From an uncultured Rickettsiales bacterium (lineage in GTDB: Bacteria > Myxococcota_A > UBA796 > UBA9615 > CAYRNR01), in contig CAZLEO010000158.1 in the NCBI GenBank assembly GCA_964558555.1, forward strand, positions 1-22,420: a stretch of DNA of 22,420 bases, given 5' to 3'. The notes beneath the pieces were generated by a model. The model was not told the origin of the DNA and ran no database searches. It was given only the letters and a program-made list of their open reading frames with translations. Positions 15,331 through 21,567 of the stretch are shown in pieces; within the stretch, counting starts at the first letter, position 1, and every line of letters begins with the position of its first letter. The translations under genes and the position numbers were made by a program.

Positions 15331-16395
15331 TCAGGGGTTGTACTCGAACCAGTCCCCGTTGGCGATGAACAGGTCCACGGCGTCGAGGTCGATCTCGACG
15401 ACGTGGTAGCGCATGGGCTGGGCGTCGTCGCCCTCGCCGACCGTGGTCTGGAGCACGGAGTTGCCGGTGGAGTCGGTCATCATCACCGGGAAGCCGTGGA
15501 ACTCGTCGTGTACGAACCAGTGGCCGTGGCCGACGAACACGCCGAGGATCTGGTCGGCGTGTTGTTCCAGGACCGCGTAGATGGGATCGGTCCAGCCCTC
15601 GTATTCGGTGCCCTCGTACTTGGCGTAGCCGCCCTCGGCCCGGGGGACCTCGAAGGGCATGCCGGCGGAGAAGCCGGCGGTGACGGCGTTGTCCAGGGCC
15701 AGGGCGTGGTGGAAGAACAACACGGCGGGCGCTCCGTCGGAGAGCTGCTGCTCGAGCCAGGTCACCTGGTCGGGGCCGAAGGAGCCGACGCCCTCTGGGT
15801 TCCAGCCGGCGTCGGGGTGGGGCTGCATGGTGTTCAGACCGTAGAAGGCGACGCCGCGTAGATCGTGGCGAAACCACAGGCCGGGCAGGCCGAGGTGGTC
15901 CAGTAGCAGCTCCTCGCGGGCCGGGAGATCGTCGGTGAGGTCGTTGAGGATGCCGCCGCCGGAGATGTAGTAGTCGTGGTTGCCAAGGGCGGCCAGCCAG
16001 GGCACCTGGAGGTCGGCGAGCAGCTCCTCGGCGCGGTGCAAGGCCGTGTCGGAGGTGCCCTCGTAGTCGGCCGGTTCGTCGCTGGGAAGCTCGTCGATCA
16101 GGTCGCCGGTGAGCAGGACGAGCTCGACAGGTGGTTCCATGGCGTTGAGGATCTCGATGGTCTCGGCCATGGTCTGGTTGTTGGAGTGGTCGGCGTCCGG
16201 CTTGAGGTGCATGTCGGTGATGACGGCAAGACGCAGCACCTCTCCGCTGCCGCCGGGGGCGCTGTCGTCGTCGTCGCCGGTGGCTTCGCCGTCGCAGCCG
16301 CCGACGAGGCCCAGGGCACCACCGGGCAGCGCGAGGCCGCTCGCTCCGAGGATCTGGATGATTCGCCTGCGCGTGAGGGTTCTTCTGGGGGCCAT
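15331..16395 (-). CDS. Calcineurin-like metallophosphoesterase, Tat/lipoprotein-type signal
   Basis: GGAGGA RBS, then ATG 16395. The N-terminus is MAPRRTLTRRRIIQILGASGLALPGGALGLVGGC (RR motif plus lipobox), with the tether DGEATGDDDDS. Phosphoesterase motifs are present: LAVITDMH, GNHD, GHGH. Confidence 0.85.
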   Translation of the reverse strand: MAPRRTLTRRRIIQILGASGLALPGGALGLVGGCDGEATGDDDDSAPGGSGEVLRLAVITDMHLKPDADHSNNQTMAETIEILNAMEPPVELVLLTGDLIDELPSDEPADYEGTSDTALHRAEELLADLQVPWLAALGNHDYYISGGGILNDLTDDLPAREELLLDHLGLPGLWFRHDLRGVAFYGLNTMQPHPDAGWNPEGVGSFGPDQVTWLEQQLSDGAPAVLFFHHALALDNAVTAGFSAGMPFEVPRAEGGYAKYEGTEYEGWTDPIYAVLEQHADQILGVFVGHGHWFVHDEFHGFPVMMTDSTGNSVLQTTVGEGDDAQPMRYHVVEIDLDAVDLFIANGDWFEYNP

Positions 16396-16507
16396 GGCTC
16401 TGTCCTCCGGACGCGCTCAGACTAGGGCCGGGATCTCCCGGTCGTCAAGCCGCAGGGGCTGTTCGGGAGGGCGGTGAAACAAGAAAAGGCGCGGTGTCGG
16501 AACTTTT

Positions 16508-16538
16508 TTGTTGACACGTTGTCAGAGGGGGATATTCT
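16508..16538 (+). promoter_or_regulatory. Sigma70-like promoter (TTGACA-16nt-TATTCT) with an embedded TGACAcgtTGTCA palindrome
   Basis: TTGACA sits at 16511-16516 and TATTCT at 16533-16538. A perfect inverted repeat, TGACA-CGT-TGTCA, sits at 16512-16524 overlapping the -35. An A/T-rich tract (aacttttttg) lies upstream. No annotated gene is immediately downstream. Confidence 0.3.
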
Positions 16539-16887
16539 CTGGAGCGCAATGTGGACGAAACACTACGATGACGAGCCCGCCTTCATCGGCGGAGACCTGT
16601 TGGCCGGGGGCCCTCCCGTGTGACGGCTAGACCGTCGTGACCGGGAGCCCCCGCCGGCAGCCGCCAGCGGGGGCTTCGTCGTTCTGGAACACAAAATCGC
16701 CAAAGCGGGGCATTCCGTCAGGGGATAGGAGCGCCCGAAAGGTGTAACAGAAAATAGATTTGACAGCGTTGACGTCAGCCGGGCCCGCGGCGCGCCGGCC
16801 CCAACGTGAGCCGCCGGAAGGCGAGTACAACGGGGTTGGACCGTGCGCGTTCCGTCCAGGGGTTCCGAACCCGGAGAGGCCAACGAC

Positions 16888-16960
16888 GCCTGGATAGCTC
16901 AGCAGGTAGAGCACACGACTTGAGATCGTGAGGTCGAAGGTTCGATTCCTTCTCCAGACT
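16888..16960 (+). tRNA. tRNA gene of 73 nt with class-I cloverleaf, anticodon UGA and no encoded CCA. It is atypical (see findings).
   Basis: The manual fold is: acceptor gcctgga/tccagac, D-arm gctc-agcaggta-gagc, anticodon arm cacga-cttgaga-tcgtg, variable aggtc, and T-arm gaagg-ttcgatt-ccttc. This is a canonical TAGCTCAGCAGGTAGAGC / GGTTCGATTCC tRNA signature. Confidence 0.7.
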
Positions 16961-17313
16961 CCTACAACCAGGGGTCCCTTTACTGGCCTGATTAGCCAGG
17001 TTACCGAGGTCCGATGGGGGAGTCCCGCGCGTCCGGCCGGCCGTATTCGCAGCGGAGGTGCGCCGCGACCGATCTCCGATCGGGGACGGCGTGCCGAGGC
17101 CGCGGGTGCGGCAGCGGGGACGACGCCAGCAGCCTGCGGGATCCGTCCGCCCCAGCGGTCGCAATGGCGGTCGTGACAGCGGACGCACGTGGGCTCCGCG
17201 TCGACAACCGTGGCTGGATCCGCGGGTTCCCTCTGACGACCGCGGCGCCGGCTGGCGATTCGGAATTCATGGAGCGCAGTGCATGGGGCACTGCCAGGCA
17301 AGGAGGTGACGTC

Positions 17314-18417
17314 ATGTTCAAGCGTTACAAGGTTCTGCGGCACGAGTTCGGGCTGAAGTACGTCGAGGACGAGTTCGTCGGCGTGCTGATGCCGGGTGTG
17401 CACTGGTTCGTCGACCTCCTGGGACGCATCCGGGTGGACGTGGTGTCCGCGCGGGAGCCGTTCCTGGTACGGGAAGACAACGACGTGCTGGTCAAGTCCG
17501 GCGCGCTCGAGGGCGTGGCCCAGGTGATCGAGTTGACCGACCGCCAGCGTGCGCTGGTGTGGATCGACGGGCGCTTCGACCGTCTGCTGGTCCCGGGCCT
17601 GCACGTGATCCTGGATGGATTCCATCGCATCGAGGTGGAGCGGGTCGAACTCGACGGGGAGATCTTCGCCCACGCCGAGATCGAGCCGATCCTCGCGCGG
17701 CTCGTCCACAACCCGCACGGGCTGGACGTGTTCGCGGTCCAGGACGGCATTGTCGGCCTGGTGTACCTCGACGGCGTGCTGAAGCACGAGCTGGAGCCGG
17801 GACGCTACGCGTTCTGGCGCGGCGTCGGCATGCAGTCCCGCCACCTGGTGGACCTGCGCGAGACCTCCGTCGACGTCGGCGGCCAGGAGCTGATGACCGC
17901 GGACAAGGTCAGCCTGCGCATCAACGCCGTGGCGACCTACCGTGTCGTGGACGCGCGCCGCAGCGTGTCCGCGGTCTCCGACCTGCGCGGTGCCCTGTAC
18001 CGCGAGGCGCAGCTGGCGCTGCGCGCCGTGGTCGGAACCCGCGAGCTCGACGTGATCCTGAGCGACAAGGACGCCGTGGCGTCCGAGCTCGAGGCGGTCC
18101 TGAAGCAGCGCGCGGCCGACTACGGTGTCGCGCTGGTCTCCTTCGGCATCAAGGACGTGATCCTGCCGGGTGAGATGAAGGACCTGCTCAACCAGGTGAC
18201 CGAGGCGCGCAAGGCGGCCGAGGCCGCGGTGATCACTCGCCGCGAGGAGGTCGCCGCCATGCGCAGCCAGGCCAACAGCGCCCGGCTGCTGCGTGACAAC
18301 CCGACCCTGATGCGCCTGCGTGAGATCGAGGCGCTCGAGCGGGTCTCCACCCACGCCAAGCTCACCGTCGTACTCGGTGAGCAGGGCCTCGCCGATCGGG
18401 TGATCAACCTGGTGTGA
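17314..18417 (+). CDS. SPFH/Band-7 (stomatin/slipin-like) domain protein
   Basis: AAGGAGGTGA RBS, then ATG 17314. The C-terminal half has the Band-7 signature (LRINAVATYRVVD...ELDVILSDKDAVASELEAVLKQRAADYGVALVSFGIKDVILPGEMKDLLNQVTEARKAAEA). No TM helix is present. The ORF-track N-terminal extension (17014) is Arg/Gly-rich non-coding. Confidence 0.9.
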   Translation: MFKRYKVLRHEFGLKYVEDEFVGVLMPGVHWFVDLLGRIRVDVVSAREPFLVREDNDVLVKSGALEGVAQVIELTDRQRALVWIDGRFDRLLVPGLHVILDGFHRIEVERVELDGEIFAHAEIEPILARLVHNPHGLDVFAVQDGIVGLVYLDGVLKHELEPGRYAFWRGVGMQSRHLVDLRETSVDVGGQELMTADKVSLRINAVATYRVVDARRSVSAVSDLRGALYREAQLALRAVVGTRELDVILSDKDAVASELEAVLKQRAADYGVALVSFGIKDVILPGEMKDLLNQVTEARKAAEAAVITRREEVAAMRSQANSARLLRDNPTLMRLREIEALERVSTHAKLTVVLGEQGLADRVINLV

Positions 18418-18440
18418 CGCCAGTGACCCCGGTCAACTCG

Positions 18441-18480
18441 CAGGGGCAGCGCGGTTTCCGCGCTGCCCCTGTCTCGTTTG
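18441..18480 (+). terminator. Rho-independent terminator-like hairpin downstream of the SPFH gene
   Basis: A perfect 13-bp stem, caggggcagcgcg / cgcgctgcccctg, with a 4-5 nt loop (gttt c) lies 24 nt after the stop. It is followed by tctcgtttg, which is U-rich for a 70% GC genome. Confidence 0.6.
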
Positions 18481-18547
18481 TCGACGGTCGACGGTCGACG
18501 GTCGACGGTCGACGGTTTGGGTCGACGGTTGGGCGGTCGACGGTTTG
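18476..18547. repeat. Tandem heptamer repeat: GTCGACG x5 perfect plus 2 spaced degenerate copies
   Basis: The sequence reads gtttg(tcgacgg)x5 tttgg gtcgacgg ttgggcg gtcgacgg tttg. Each unit contains the palindrome GTCGAC. It lies between the SPFH terminator and the stop of the convergent gene at 18548. Confidence 0.85.
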
Positions 18548-19108
18548 CTAGTCCCAGCTGCGCTGGGTCTCGGGGGGGAGGAGCTTTTCGAGGTGGGCGG
18601 CGATGTCGCCGGTGGCGTCTGCCTCGAGGGTGACGCCCTCGACGTCGTGCAGGGTGATGCGGACGGGGCCGTCGGGATCGCCGAGGGATGGGGTGACGAT
18701 CATGCGGTAGACCGCCTCGGTCAGCACGGCGGTGACCTTCCCGGCTCGGTCGGCCTCGACGCGGTCGGGCCAGATGCGCAGCTCGCGGTGGGGTGGCCGG
18801 TAGCGCCGGCGGAAGTCGTGGCGGCTGAACACGGCACAGACGAGGCCGATGGATGTGAAGGTGGTGAGGGCCGAGGCCAGGGTGAGGCCGTAGGGCGCGC
18901 CGATGTGCTCGGAGAGCAACCAGAACGTGAACGCGAACCCCGCGAATCCGCCGACGCCCACGAGCACGATCGCCGACAGCACGTAGCCCCAGATCGTCAC
19001 GGGGTCGATCGTCGGAACGTGAGGTCTGTGGACGATGGGGTACGACGCGGACGCCGACGCGTCCGACCGATCGGGTAGTTCGTGCCAGTCCTTTCGGCGT
19101 TCGTCCAT
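18548..19108 (-). CDS. Membrane protein with two N-terminal TM helices and a soluble C-terminal domain (bacterial PH-domain-like)
   Basis: GAGGGGAA RBS, then ATG 19108. It has two hydrophobic helices (WGYVLSAIVLVGVGGFAGFAFTFWLL and LTLASALTTFTSIGLVCAVF) followed by a soluble domain of about 90 aa. The layout is YdbS/bPH_2-like, but the assignment is tentative. Confidence 0.65.
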   Translation of the reverse strand: MDERRKDWHELPDRSDASASASYPIVHRPHVPTIDPVTIWGYVLSAIVLVGVGGFAGFAFTFWLLSEHIGAPYGLTLASALTTFTSIGLVCAVFSRHDFRRRYRPPHRELRIWPDRVEADRAGKVTAVLTEAVYRMIVTPSLGDPDGPVRITLHDVEGVTLEADATGDIAAHLEKLLPPETQRSWD

Positions 19109-19219: not shown

Positions 19220-20428
19220 ATGCCCCGGGTCTCGATCGGACTGTGGCCGCTGATCGTCGTCGCGGCGTTCGCCTGCTCCCCCGGCGAGGAGGGCGACGAC
19301 GACGACAGCGCCGTCGAGGACACGACGCCGGTGATCGGCGAGGCCATCGACGTGGTGCCGTCGGACGGGCTGCCGGCCGACGTGGAGCTGCAGGACGCGA
19401 ACAACAACCTGGACGTGGCGTGGTTCGGCGACCGGGTCTTCCTGGCGTTCCGCACGGCGCCCAGCCACTTCGCAGCCCCGGAGACGATGCTGTACGTCGT
19501 CAGCTCCACCGACCAGGAGACCTGGCGCTACGAGGGGTCGTTCTGGATGGAGACCGACCTGCGCGAGCCGCGCCTGCTGGCCGTGGAGGGCCGGCTGTTC
19601 CTCTACTACGCGGTCCTCGGGCAGTCCGCGGCCGACTTCGAACCCCAGGGCACCCTGGTCACCGAGTACCTCGGCGTGGACCAGTGGACCGAGCCGGAGT
19701 GGATCTTCGTCGAGGGGTTCATCCCGTGGCGGGCGCGGGTGATCGACGGCACGGCCTACCTCATCGGGTACGAGGGCGGCGCGGACATCTACGACTTCTC
19801 CGAGGGCACGGAGTTCGTGTACTGGTATCGCTCCGACGACGGGCTGAACTGGGAGCCGGTGGCGCCGGACCAGCCCATCGTGCACCAGGGGGGTGTGTCC
19901 GAGGCGGACTTCGCGTTCCTCGACGACGGGTCGGCCGTGATCGTGGGCCGCAACGAGCTGGGGGACGAGGACGGCTGGGGCTCGAAGATCTGCCGCGCCG
20001 AGGCGGGCGCCCTGGACGACTGGACCTGCGCCATCGATCCGAAGAAGTACGATTCTCCGCTGGTCTTCCGCGCCGGCGGCCGCGTGTGGCTCGTGGGTCG
20101 GCGCAACGTCACCGACACGGGCAACTACGACCTGTTCTACCGCGACCTCGAGCCGTCCCAGCAGACCCTGGAGTACCTGGTGGACTACTGGGTCCACCCC
20201 AAGCGGTGCTCCCTGTGGGAGGTGGACCCCGAAACGCTCGAGGTCCACTTCGTGCTCGACCTGCCTTCGTGCGGCGACACCTGCTTCGCGTCCGCCCTGC
20301 CCACCGAGGACGAGGGGCGTATGTGGATCTACAACTACACGTCGCCCCTGGACGACCTGGACATCTCCTGGCTCGACGGCCAGCTGGAGGAGACGTTGAT
20401 CTACCGCATCGAGCTGGCGATTCCATGA
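19220..20428 (+). CDS. Lipoprotein with Asp-box (BNR) motifs, a sialidase/glycosidase-like beta-propeller
   Basis: GCGAGGAGG RBS, then ATG 19220. The N-terminus MPRVSIGLWPLIVVAAFAC carries a lipobox. The tether is SPGEEGDDDDSAVED. Asp-box-like motifs are present: SSTDQETW and RSDDGLNWEP. Confidence 0.8.
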   Translation: MPRVSIGLWPLIVVAAFACSPGEEGDDDDSAVEDTTPVIGEAIDVVPSDGLPADVELQDANNNLDVAWFGDRVFLAFRTAPSHFAAPETMLYVVSSTDQETWRYEGSFWMETDLREPRLLAVEGRLFLYYAVLGQSAADFEPQGTLVTEYLGVDQWTEPEWIFVEGFIPWRARVIDGTAYLIGYEGGADIYDFSEGTEFVYWYRSDDGLNWEPVAPDQPIVHQGGVSEADFAFLDDGSAVIVGRNELGDEDGWGSKICRAEAGALDDWTCAIDPKKYDSPLVFRAGGRVWLVGRRNVTDTGNYDLFYRDLEPSQQTLEYLVDYWVHPKRCSLWEVDPETLEVHFVLDLPSCGDTCFASALPTEDEGRMWIYNYTSPLDDLDISWLDGQLEETLIYRIELAIP

Positions 20429-21567
20429 GCCGCACCTTCTTCGCCACGTGCGCGCTGGGCCTCGAGGAGGTCGTGCGCGACGAGCTGGTCGCCCTGGGGG
20501 CGGACAACGCCCGCGCGCTGCGCGGACGCGTGTCCTTCCACGGCTCCCTGTCGCTGGGGTATGCGGCGTGCCTGTGGCTGCGCTCGGCGAGCCGTGTGCA
20601 GGAGCAGCTGTTCCGCGACAGGCCGGCCGGGTCCCGTCAGCTCCTGTACGACGCGGTTCGCGCGTTCGACTGGGGGCCGCTGATCGAGCCGGACAACACC
20701 CTGGCGGTGAGCGCCTCGGTGCGCGACAGCCGTGCCACGGACACGCGGTTCGTGTCCCTGGTGACCAAGGACGCCATCGTCGATCAGATCCGCGACCGAT
20801 GCGGCAGCCGGCCGAACGTGGACGCCGACGACCCGCACATGCCCATCCGCGTGCTGGTCCACCGGGATCGCGCCACCGTGCTGCGCGACCTGTCCGGCGA
20901 CAGCCTGCACCGCCGTGGCTGGCGGCCGATCCAGGTCAAGAGCCCGCTGAACGAGGCCATCGCCGGGGGGCTGCTGCAGCTCACGGGCTGGACCGGGGAG
21001 GGCACGCTCGTGGACCCCATGTGCGGGTCGGGTACCTTCCTGGTGGAGGCGGCCCACCTGGCGCAGGACCGCGCGCCGGGGCTGAGGCGCCGGTTCGCCT
21101 TCGAGCAGTGTCCGGACCTGGAGCAGACGGAGTGGCGGCGGCTGCGAGACGAGGCCGAACAGCGGTACGCGGTGGGGCGCGAGCGGGAGGTGTCCATCGT
21201 CGGCAGCGACGCCCATCCGGGCGCCCTGGGGCTGGCGCGGCGCAGCCTCGAGGCGGCCCAGGTGCGGGACGCGGTCAAGGTGCGGCGCATGTCGGTCGAG
21301 CGCGCCGTGCTGGACGGCCCGCCGGCGCTCGTGGTCAGCAATCCCCCCTGGGGTCTGCGCCAGGAGAAGCAGGGCCTGAGGCAGACCTGGAGCCAGCTGG
21401 GGACCTTCCTCAAGACCCACTGCGGCGGCTCCACCGCCTACCTGCTGTCTGGAGAGCCGACCCTGACGCAGGTGCTCAAGCTGCGCGCGGCGCGCCGCCA
21501 CCCGGTGCGCATCGCACAGGTGGACTGCCGCTGGATCCGCTACGAGGTGCTGCCGCCGCGGGATTGA
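20425..21567 (+). CDS. THUMP-domain class I SAM-dependent RNA methyltransferase (RlmL/COG0116-like)
   Basis: ATG 20425 overlaps the upstream stop (ATGA). The N-terminus MSRTFFATCALGLEEVVRDELVALGA is the typical THUMP-methylase start. SAM motif I is DPMCGSGTFLVEAA. Motif IV is VVSNPPWG. Confidence 0.9.
   Translation: MSRTFFATCALGLEEVVRDELVALGADNARALRGRVSFHGSLSLGYAACLWLRSASRVQEQLFRDRPAGSRQLLYDAVRAFDWGPLIEPDNTLAVSASVRDSRATDTRFVSLVTKDAIVDQIRDRCGSRPNVDADDPHMPIRVLVHRDRATVLRDLSGDSLHRRGWRPIQVKSPLNEAIAGGLLQLTGWTGEGTLVDPMCGSGTFLVEAAHLAQDRAPGLRRRFAFEQCPDLEQTEWRRLRDEAEQRYAVGREREVSIVGSDAHPGALGLARRSLEAAQVRDAVKVRRMSVERAVLDGPPALVVSNPPWGLRQEKQGLRQTWSQLGTFLKTHCGGSTAYLLSGEPTLTQVLKLRAARRHPVRIAQVDCRWIRYEVLPPRD

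Follow-up and report, generated by a model that had tools for sequence, protein, structure and literature searches.

A tRNA-like element ahead of an SPFH/Band-7 gene, a likely b7a-type RNA, in an uncultured bacterium

The locus and its tRNA-like element

The whole stretch of DNA analysed here (the window; 22.4 kb, 69% GC, contig CAZLEO010000158.1 of an uncultured Rickettsiales bacterium) carries a tRNA-shaped element of 73 nt, followed on the same strand by a gene encoding a SPFH/Band-7 ("slipin") protein (Table 1). Because of the high GC content, genes were picked by third-position GC and then annotated. ARAGORN found a single tRNA in the window, at 16888-16962(+), and named it tRNA-Ser(tga); Rfam RF00005 matched 16888-16960(+) with 67.2 bits (E=6.6e-13, gathering score 29) over model positions 1-71. 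A promoter candidate, a leader, the element, a spacer, the SPFH gene and a terminator together form a compact candidate unit.

Table 1. Position of the element, its partner gene and other features in the window
Feature	Position	Strand	Basis or remark
Metallophosphoesterase gene, divergent	15331-16395		
Sigma-70-like promoter candidate, TTGACA-16 nt-TATTCT	16511-16538	+	Consensus match only, 10/12 positions
Leader, ~350 nt, from promoter candidate to element	16539-16887	+	Sequence; GC-rich hairpin inside
Possible 24-codon reading frame in leader	16549-16623		MWTKHYDDEPAFIGGDLLAGGPPV
Leader hairpin (inverted repeat I14)	16646-16675		GC-rich; 13-nt arms, 4-nt loop
Upstream copy of imperfect 11-nt direct repeat	16856-16866		CCAGGGGTTCC
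Small palindrome	16860-16872		GGGTTCCGAACCC
tRNA-like element, most likely b7a-type	16888-16960	+	ARAGORN, Rfam, membership in the SPFH-proximal family, covariation
Non-coding spacer / 5' untranslated region, 353 nt, from element to SPFH start codon	16961-17313	+	
Downstream copy of imperfect 11-nt direct repeat	16968-16978		CCAGGGGTCCC
SPFH/Band-7 ("slipin") gene, 367 aa	17314-18417	+	Pfam Band_7 at residues 142-312, E=1.5e-28
Terminator-like hairpin (inverted repeat I7) closing the putative transcription unit	18440-18472	+	15-bp stem, 12 G-C pairs, 3-nt loop
Tandem GTCGACGGT-type units	18480-18547		Directly past the terminator hairpin
THUMP/UPF0020 methyltransferase gene	20425-21567	+	RlmL-like (NCBIfam PRK11783, E=9.6e-93)

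In the ARAGORN drawing, the acceptor stem is GCCUGGA/UCCAGAC, in which G1 pairs with C72, C2·A71 is left unpaired and six of the seven pairs form. The D arm is GCUC-AGCAGGUA-GAGC, the anticodon stem CACGA/UCGUG encloses a 7-nt loop (C-U-UGA-G-A) with the canonical U33 and with G37, and the T arm is GAAGG-UUCGAUU-CCUUC. Both ARAGORN and Rfam give a class-I body with a 5-nt variable loop, AGGUC. The discriminator U73 is followed by CCU and CCA is therefore not encoded. A sequence-only reading of this DNA had already described a class-I cloverleaf with a 5-nt variable loop, a UGA anticodon in a 7-nt loop followed by G37, and a C2-A71 mismatch; ARAGORN and Rfam recovered the same fold, ARAGORN gave the same loop register, and Rfam flagged one non-canonical pair in the acceptor stem. 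The element and the entire 918-nt intergenic region around it are 100% identical across contigs from five different samples or assemblers (JGI 3300009008 (Ga0115649_1010631) and 3300009128; ENA ERZ23498639 and ERZ23498660; Logan SRR8062321), all of which represent one population (at least 99.9% identical). Since the same sequence occurs in the five assemblies, a sequencing error as the source of the mismatch was ruled out.

Bacterial SerRS recognizes mainly the long class II variable arm of its substrate, and bacterial tRNA-Ser has a 7-bp acceptor stem and G73. The element has a variable loop of 5 nt rather than a long arm, and the C2·A71 mismatch and U73 in place of the complete stem and G73.

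The AlphaFold model of the partner protein (pLDDT 86.7) shows three beta-repeat units at the N-terminus, then an SPFH domain, then a long helix. It has no predicted membrane segment, the maximum 19-residue hydropathy being 1.33. An AAGGAGG precedes its start codon, and a strong Shine-Dalgarno sequence also ends the spacer at the other measured loci. The promoter candidate is the sole promoter-like match in 16300-18600, where 0.2 are expected in shuffles, and could, judged by its sequence, direct transcription of the leader, the element and the SPFH gene. The siting given by the sequence-only reading, about 350 nt from this match and from the SPFH gene, was borne out, but the statement that the element sits alone was not, as the unit is the tRNA-SPFH pair.

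A co-oriented pair conserved across phyla

Class-I tRNAs with a YUUGARA anticodon loop were first scanned for in ~185,000 species-representative genomes, which gave 23 loci; a G37-restricted scan of metagenomes gave 36 loci, many of them low-GC repeat-like sequences. When all window proteins were compared with the scanned loci by tblastn, the SPFH protein was the only one with homologs there. An SPFH homolog lay downstream of, and on the same strand as, the tRNA at 15 of the 23 genome loci and at the metagenome locus L043, and these UGA-loop loci belong to Planctomycetota, Acidobacteriota, Gammaproteobacteria and Verrucomicrobiota. Because the scan pattern had fixed the anticodon loop, loci were also drawn by SPFH homologs alone (annotated Planctomycetota/Pirellulales slipins, 55-58% identical), and each of the eight distinct Planctomycetota-type loci so obtained carried a tRNA-like element 324-461 nt 5' of the SPFH start. 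In all 24 other loci examined, from at least five phyla, a same-strand tRNA-like element precedes the SPFH homolog. The gap between the two is 316-576 nt at 21 of the 22 measured loci and 826 nt in L023, with the 353 nt of the window inside this range. The tRNA-like element and the SPFH gene are thus a conserved co-oriented pair across phyla.

The loop of the SPFH-proximal element is variable. GAU loops were found in L069, L075 and L086, CAG loops in L081 and L083 on a class-I body that is wrong for Leu, a GCU loop in L084 on a class-I body that is wrong for Ser, a UUG loop in L073, which ARAGORN missed, and an AUC loop in L076, which is unnatural for Asp. A "Phe(aaa)" element lies 256 nt upstream of SPFH in the Burkholderia locus L077. 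We aligned 22 element sequences and counted pairs in each cloverleaf helix. The D stem is 100% paired and invariant; the T stem is also 100% paired, with changes on both sides at three of five pairs, and the anticodon stem is paired in 99.1% of cells, with changes on both sides at all five pairs. Acceptor pairs 5-7 are 95-100% paired and covarying, and pairing then falls to 77% at pair 4, 59% at pair 3 and 41%, about chance level, at pairs 1-2. The covariation score of 0.568 was reached by none of 500 column shuffles (0.158), and slid registers gave at most 0.136. From this pairing and covariation it follows that the family keeps a tRNA-shaped core, not a given anticodon or a 7-bp acceptor helix.

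Comparisons of single members show the same pattern. The bodies of the L043 and L076 elements are the same between the inner acceptor pairs and the T arm, both included, except that the anticodon loop differs at seven of seven positions; their flanks are unalignable. Rfam spans only model positions 3-68 or 5-66 of the SPFH-proximal elements, but 1-71 of the adjacent array tRNAs. In the window copy, the anticodon and T stems each carry compensatory changes relative to the Planctomycetota consensus. Selection keeps the D, anticodon and T arms together with the inner three to four acceptor pairs, and not the loop sequence or the outer pairs.

Full-length SPFH homologs were also sought by protein search of plasmid and chromid records. 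In Citrobacter freundii (L078), a divergent rtcR is followed, 448 nt on, by the slipin gene and a nucleotidyltransferase gene that is RlaP (PF10127, E=1.5e-96). The Burkholderia multivorans locus (L077) has the order divergent rtcR / tRNA-like / SPFH / RtcB / RlaP, three Gammaproteobacteria (L010, L012, L022) have tRNA-like(UGA) - SPFH - RtcB, Subdoligranulum (L080) has SPFH - RtcB - RlaP, and a metagenome contig (L073) has SPFH - tRNA array - RtcB (PF01139). Full-length homologs of the window protein lie beside RtcB, RlaP or rtcR at these seven loci; the window itself is without these genes. An SPFH protein of Pseudomonas aeruginosa, PaFlo8, is likewise embedded in an rtc locus (PMC13086221).

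The position of the leader holds additional tRNA genes in relatives. In L043, L076, L083 and L086 the element ends a run of 4-21 co-oriented tRNA genes (21 in L076 and 20 in L086), and in Planctomycetota the pair frequently closes such long arrays, of which the window has the single-element version. At six loci (L002, L016, L076, L083, L084 and L086) tRNA-Cys(GCA) stands directly 5' of the SPFH-proximal element, which suggests a conserved array terminus. This tRNA-Cys is often preceded by Arg-Arg or Trp-Arg-Arg; in L016, the array and a UGA element are present and no SPFH homolog was found in the 2.1 kb available downstream. Long tRNA arrays (L-arrays) are defined by at least 20 tRNA genes at a density of at least two per kb (PMC4758250), and the window has one tRNA in 22.4 kb. 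L-arrays are found in Planctomycetes and linked to rtcB (PMC8421152). In a trcR mutant of Anabaena, de-repression of the slipin alr0740 reaches 42-fold and is shared by the trn tRNA array and rtcB (PMC10272220), so that slipin and array are co-regulated. Like the Anabaena trn operon, the relatives of the window pair have an SPFH gene behind co-oriented tRNA genes, but the SPFH-proximal element differs from L-array tRNAs by its eroded acceptor stem and by an anticodon that misfits its body. The two L-array papers (PMC8421152, PMC10272220) do not mention SPFH.

Known relatives and a proposed role

The abstract of the 2016 study by Burroughs and Aravind reportedly describes SPFH/Band-7 modules with "a novel tRNA-like molecule" as potential scaffolding cofactors. 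The tRNA associated with band 7 (b7a-tRNA) is a prediction of that study (Nucleic Acids Res 44:8525), which is quoted in 10.1101/312249. According to that summary, b7a-tRNA strongly resembles authentic tRNA, is apparently interchangeable with YrlA and lacks experimental validation; a full-text search for "b7a-tRNA" returned no other paper and no such validation. We directly tested two features of the class, a tRNA-like fold and adjacency to a Band-7 gene, and the element has both. A Band-7 protein of the kind that neighbours RtcB is a further feature of the class, and here this context is seen in homologs only. It is a tRNA-resembling non-coding RNA (ncRNA) directly 5' of a Band-7/SPFH gene whose homologs adjoin RtcB, RlaP and RtcR, and, like this locus, the class is known by genomic prediction. 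The Burkholderia operon of L077 matches the b7a-tRNA of Burroughs and Aravind (2016) as far as it is summarized there. By sequence and context, the window element is most likely a member of this already predicted class. However, the window pair stands alone, without RtcB, RlaP or RtcR in 22 kb, and the Planctomycetota pair usually closes a tRNA array. Automated annotation labels such a gene tRNA-Ser(UGA), as ARAGORN did, so that tRNA counts are inflated and recoding, probably absent, is suggested; recognition as b7a-type avoids this.

The second comparison is with bacterial Y RNAs such as YrlA, which act with the Ro60 protein Rsr and are encoded in rsr-yrlBA-rtcBA operons (PMC4201824; PMC7790460). 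YrlA is also a tRNA-mimicking ncRNA just 5' of the gene of its partner protein in RtcB/RtcR repair loci. Its acceptor stem is often shorter than 7 bp and it is thought not to be aminoacylated (PMC4201824); the proposed role is that of a cofactor or competitive inhibitor of an anticodon nuclease. The two differ in architecture. In YrlA the mimicry covers the D and T arms and the acceptor stem, and a helix that binds Ro60 is attached (PMC4201824), whereas the window element has an entire anticodon arm, with a loop of 7 nt, lacks an extended Ro-binding helix, and is paired with an SPFH rather than a TROVE protein. Pfam found no TROVE protein among the window's open reading frames, and in 16300-17400 neither a Y-RNA family (Rfam, E-value mode) nor an extended closing helix around the element was seen.

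The third comparison concerns the partner. In Foldseek searches, the stomatin, HflK/C and prohibitin cages match the SPFH model over the C-terminal ~230 columns; a single PDB family, the major vault protein, matched the model over its full length (423-475 columns, E=2.5e-11). In both the vault protein and the modelled SPFH partner, beta repeats lead to an SPFH-like domain and then to a long helix, and the vault combines a cage-forming SPFH-type protein with a small structured RNA; by analogy, the SPFH partner may assemble in a similar way. The modelled partner differs from the major vault protein in having three repeats rather than nine, with 12-14% sequence identity, and vault RNA is not tRNA-shaped, unlike the window element. 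We take the resemblance, which comes from a predicted structure, as a lead only.

With a probability of about 75%, in our estimate, the element is a tRNA-shaped ncRNA just 5' of, and probably co-transcribed with, the gene of an SPFH/Band-7 protein, soluble and part of RNA-repair and translational-stress systems centred on RtcB. As judged from sequence comparisons, it most likely acts as a non-decoding RNA cofactor or bait. Rather than an aminoacylated decoder, the RNA would be the cognate RNA of an oligomeric Band-7 assembly, as Y RNA/YrlA is for Ro60, and its weak, eroded acceptor end would exclude it from translation. It might serve as a scaffold by which repair enzymes that act on tRNA are brought to damaged tRNA; alternatively, it might mimic a tRNA as a bait or sensor, with an exposed anticodon loop of natural appearance that anticodon nucleases cut. 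The module here would then be reduced to the RNA and the Band-7 core, with its own promoter candidate and terminator and no RtcB within 22 kb. Among the options offered by the sequence-only reading, a tRNA-like regulatory or structural element comes closest to the evidence, the core being under structural selection and the loop and the distal acceptor end not.

Several points weigh against this reading. A tblastn search with RtcB, RlaP and RtcR proteins found none of them in the 22-kb window, and the link to RNA repair therefore rests on homologs with 32-45% protein identity. The definition of b7a-tRNA was taken second-hand from the summary in 10.1101/312249. The window copy is among the better-formed members of the family, with six of seven acceptor pairs, G1-C72 and 67 bits, and, judged by its sequence, charging of this copy is conceivable. 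The scaffold and bait or sensor roles are both options that we infer.

A bolder version of the bait role may be tentatively sketched, although we consider it doubtful. Most loops of the family look natural: among the tRNAs of E. coli and B. subtilis, CUUGAAA is a Ser-UGA loop and CUGAUAA an Ile-GAU loop, and CUCAGGA resembles a Leu-CAG loop with G37. The RNA might be a programmable bait, the 7-nt loop of which is swapped between lineages to copy the tRNA loops attacked by local anticodon nucleases (for example Ser-UGA, Leu-CAG, Ile-GAU, Ser-GCU and Gln-UUG). A soluble vault-like SPFH cage, with beta repeats, an SPFH "shoulder" and a cap helix, would sense or sequester the attack and pass the cleaved tRNA to RtcB-type repair. 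The Planctomycetota ribonucleoprotein would be the terminal pair of mobile back-up tRNA arrays, forming one anti-toxin "translation insurance" cassette, and the window would hold the stripped-down core.

Several features may go beyond what is quoted in the literature consulted: an anticodon loop that varies freely while the scaffold stays fixed, outer acceptor pairs that are systematically eroded, and a pair that closes long tRNA arrays at their 3' end and has a vault-like, membrane-free protein partner. The association of a tRNA mimic and an SPFH protein at RNA-repair loci has stood as an unsolved problem since 2016, and the conserved core, free loop and eroded acceptor end, together with the array link and the soluble vault-like partner, lead to concrete experiments on the class.

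Alternative explanations and neighbouring features

In some loci the element is located at the junction of a tRNA array and the SPFH mRNA, and it could be a pure processing signal, at which a cut by RNase P and/or by RNase Z or E frees the SPFH mRNA from a tRNA or leader transcript upstream and leaves an RNA without a later role. The fixed, co-oriented upstream position is consistent with such a signal, as is the conservation of the T arm and the inner acceptor helix, the parts recognized by RNase P, and RNase P does cut YrlA of M. smegmatis (PMC4201824). However, conservation is equally strong in the anticodon and D arms, for which RNase P has no need; the 7-bp acceptor stem, a major RNase P determinant (PMC4201824), is missing in the family; and at most loci 320-580 nt of spacer lie between the element and the start codon. 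Processing as the sole function is unlikely, although it is compatible with an RNA cofactor or bait and does not exclude it.

The presence of 4-21 tRNA genes ahead of SPFH in L043, L076, L083 and L086, against one in the window, also permits the view that the element is a decaying, functionless leftover of a horizontally acquired L-array that once stood ahead of the SPFH gene and was kept by chance. L-arrays often gain and lose genes (PMC8421152), and the outer acceptor pairs are eroded family-wide. Such decay is difficult to reconcile with three core stems that stay 99-100% paired through compensatory substitutions across phyla while their flanks are saturated, which indicates purifying selection. 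In addition, the element occurs without an array in L077 (rtcR / tRNA-like - SPFH - RtcB) and in L010, L012 and L022, and in most loci it stays roughly 320-580 nt away from the SPFH start. We regard a leftover as quite improbable.

Another possibility is that the tRNA is genuine, becomes charged and reads UCA (or UCN), inserting serine by some unusual route or, as a deliberate mistranslator, another amino acid. The tRNA score is 67.2 bits, U33 is canonical, the anticodon loop has 7 nt, the D and T loops are perfect, and six of seven acceptor pairs form, including G1-C72. Position 37, a G that follows A36, is not a TrmD context, the long variable arm is missing and the discriminator is U73. Elements in the same position elsewhere carry unrelated "anticodons" and degenerate outer acceptor pairs. 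No special demand for UCA decoding exists either, UCA making up 3 of the 6,719 codons in the window genes and none in the SPFH gene. The tRNAs in the relatives' long arrays can be functional (PMC8421152), and mistranslating bacterial tRNAs exist (PMC10404621). In the case of Streptomyces tRNAProX, a tRNA is co-encoded with a dedicated ProRS isoform (ProRSx) and was shown to be charged and to decode (the same paper); like the window element, it is a bacterial tRNA whose anticodon mismatches its body or identity. Unlike in the tRNAProX/ProRSx pairs, however, the "anticodon" here varies from one homologous locus to another, the acceptor end has degenerated and no synthetase gene lies nearby: a Pfam search of 20 window open reading frames found no aminoacyl-tRNA synthetase domain, which rules out a dedicated nearby synthetase. 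The "genuinely unusual decoder" of the sequence-only reading is therefore highly improbable.

In two Planctomycetota metagenome-assembled genomes, unlike in most of the family, the SPFH-linked UGA elements (L003 5931-6005; L013 7144-7218) pair over all 7 bp of the acceptor stem, G3·U70 included, and CCA is encoded after the discriminator; both features speak for a decoder. G3·U70 is the classic AlaRS identity pair, and these elements, if expressed and charged, would bring alanine to UCA codons.

tRNA genes are common attachment (att) sites of integrases, and an imperfect 11-nt direct repeat flanks the element, so that an att remnant marking the edge of a mobile island was considered, as it had been in the sequence-only reading together with a pseudo-tRNA. 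This was rejected as very improbable: the 21-nt tRNA 3' half occurs once in the window even with up to three mismatches allowed, no integrase or recombinase domain was found in the window genes searched, the repeat on its two sides is not part of the tRNA body, composition does not change at the element (GC 0.65 in the two windows over it, 0.65-0.73 elsewhere), and a scar would not be expected to stay at one place and on one strand beside a single gene family across phyla. The 11-nt repeat is short for 70% GC sequence and probably arose by chance; its upstream copy overlaps the small palindrome.

Other potential partners in the window were also rejected. The metallophosphoesterase was considered as an RNA end-healing enzyme, but it has a twin-arginine-type signal, MAPRRTLTRRRIIQILGASG, at its N-terminus and no homolog at the other loci. 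The THUMP methyltransferase, which also resembles the tRNA m2G6 enzyme Trm14, is encoded 3.5 kb 3' of the element; because it is not syntenic with the module at other loci, its proximity is probably coincidental. An anti-phage defence system is unsupported, since PADLOC gave no meaningful hit for the SPFH protein and its neighbours and no SPFH homolog was found in 50,697 phage records. There is no phage gene among the annotated window genes. Neither TCG nor TCA occurs among the 14 Ser codons of the SPFH gene or the 12 of the metallophosphoesterase gene, and TCG accounts for 125 of the 370 Ser codons over the window genes; this absence may be chance or a different codon adaptation.

A search of 16300-17400 with Rfam at E up to 5 gave only the tRNA and a weak antisense echo, with no convincing other match, and a hidden second tRNA or Y RNA flanking the element was thereby rejected. 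Rfam in E-value mode likewise found no recognizable RNA family in the leader. The leader hairpin is followed by TCGTCGTTCT and might serve as an attenuator or terminator. Within the element-SPFH spacer, blastn and nhmmer found no long-range sequence conservation, and no conserved small reading frame was seen. A ~21-nt motif, CTCTGCAG-NN-CG-YGGAT-W-CCG, occurs 100-220 nt past the element in the spacers of eight Planctomycetota loci (L069, L076, L020, L043, L013, L075, L073 and L003), with nhmmer E-values from 7.7e-17 (seed locus L069) to 7e-3; nhmmer did not detect it in the window spacer.

Some class-I UGA tRNA-like elements found in the scans are not beside SPFH genes. In cyanobacterial and other contigs (L008, L015, L017, L051 and L068), an extra inverted repeat, AAAGCT...AGCTTT, lengthens the acceptor helix, and in L008, L015 and L051 the next protein has a C-terminal DKSGSM (vWA-type) motif. 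The 493-residue protein of L015 weakly matches solved TROVE-domain proteins (E=0.044) and has no Pfam hit. These five are probably loci of the Rsr/Ro60-YrlA type. The UGA tRNA-likes of Pseudomonas cedrina (L007) and Xenophilus sp. (L011), which belong to different proteobacterial classes and have no SPFH neighbour, have imperfect anticodon stems (and, in L007, an imperfect T stem) and share the 3' flank TTCAGAAGCCCT.

At the end of the putative transcription unit, the terminator-like hairpin is followed by CTCGTTTGTC and then by the tandem units. Independent assemblies differ by a ~40-nt indel at ~18453-18456, and this spot is therefore length-polymorphic within the population.

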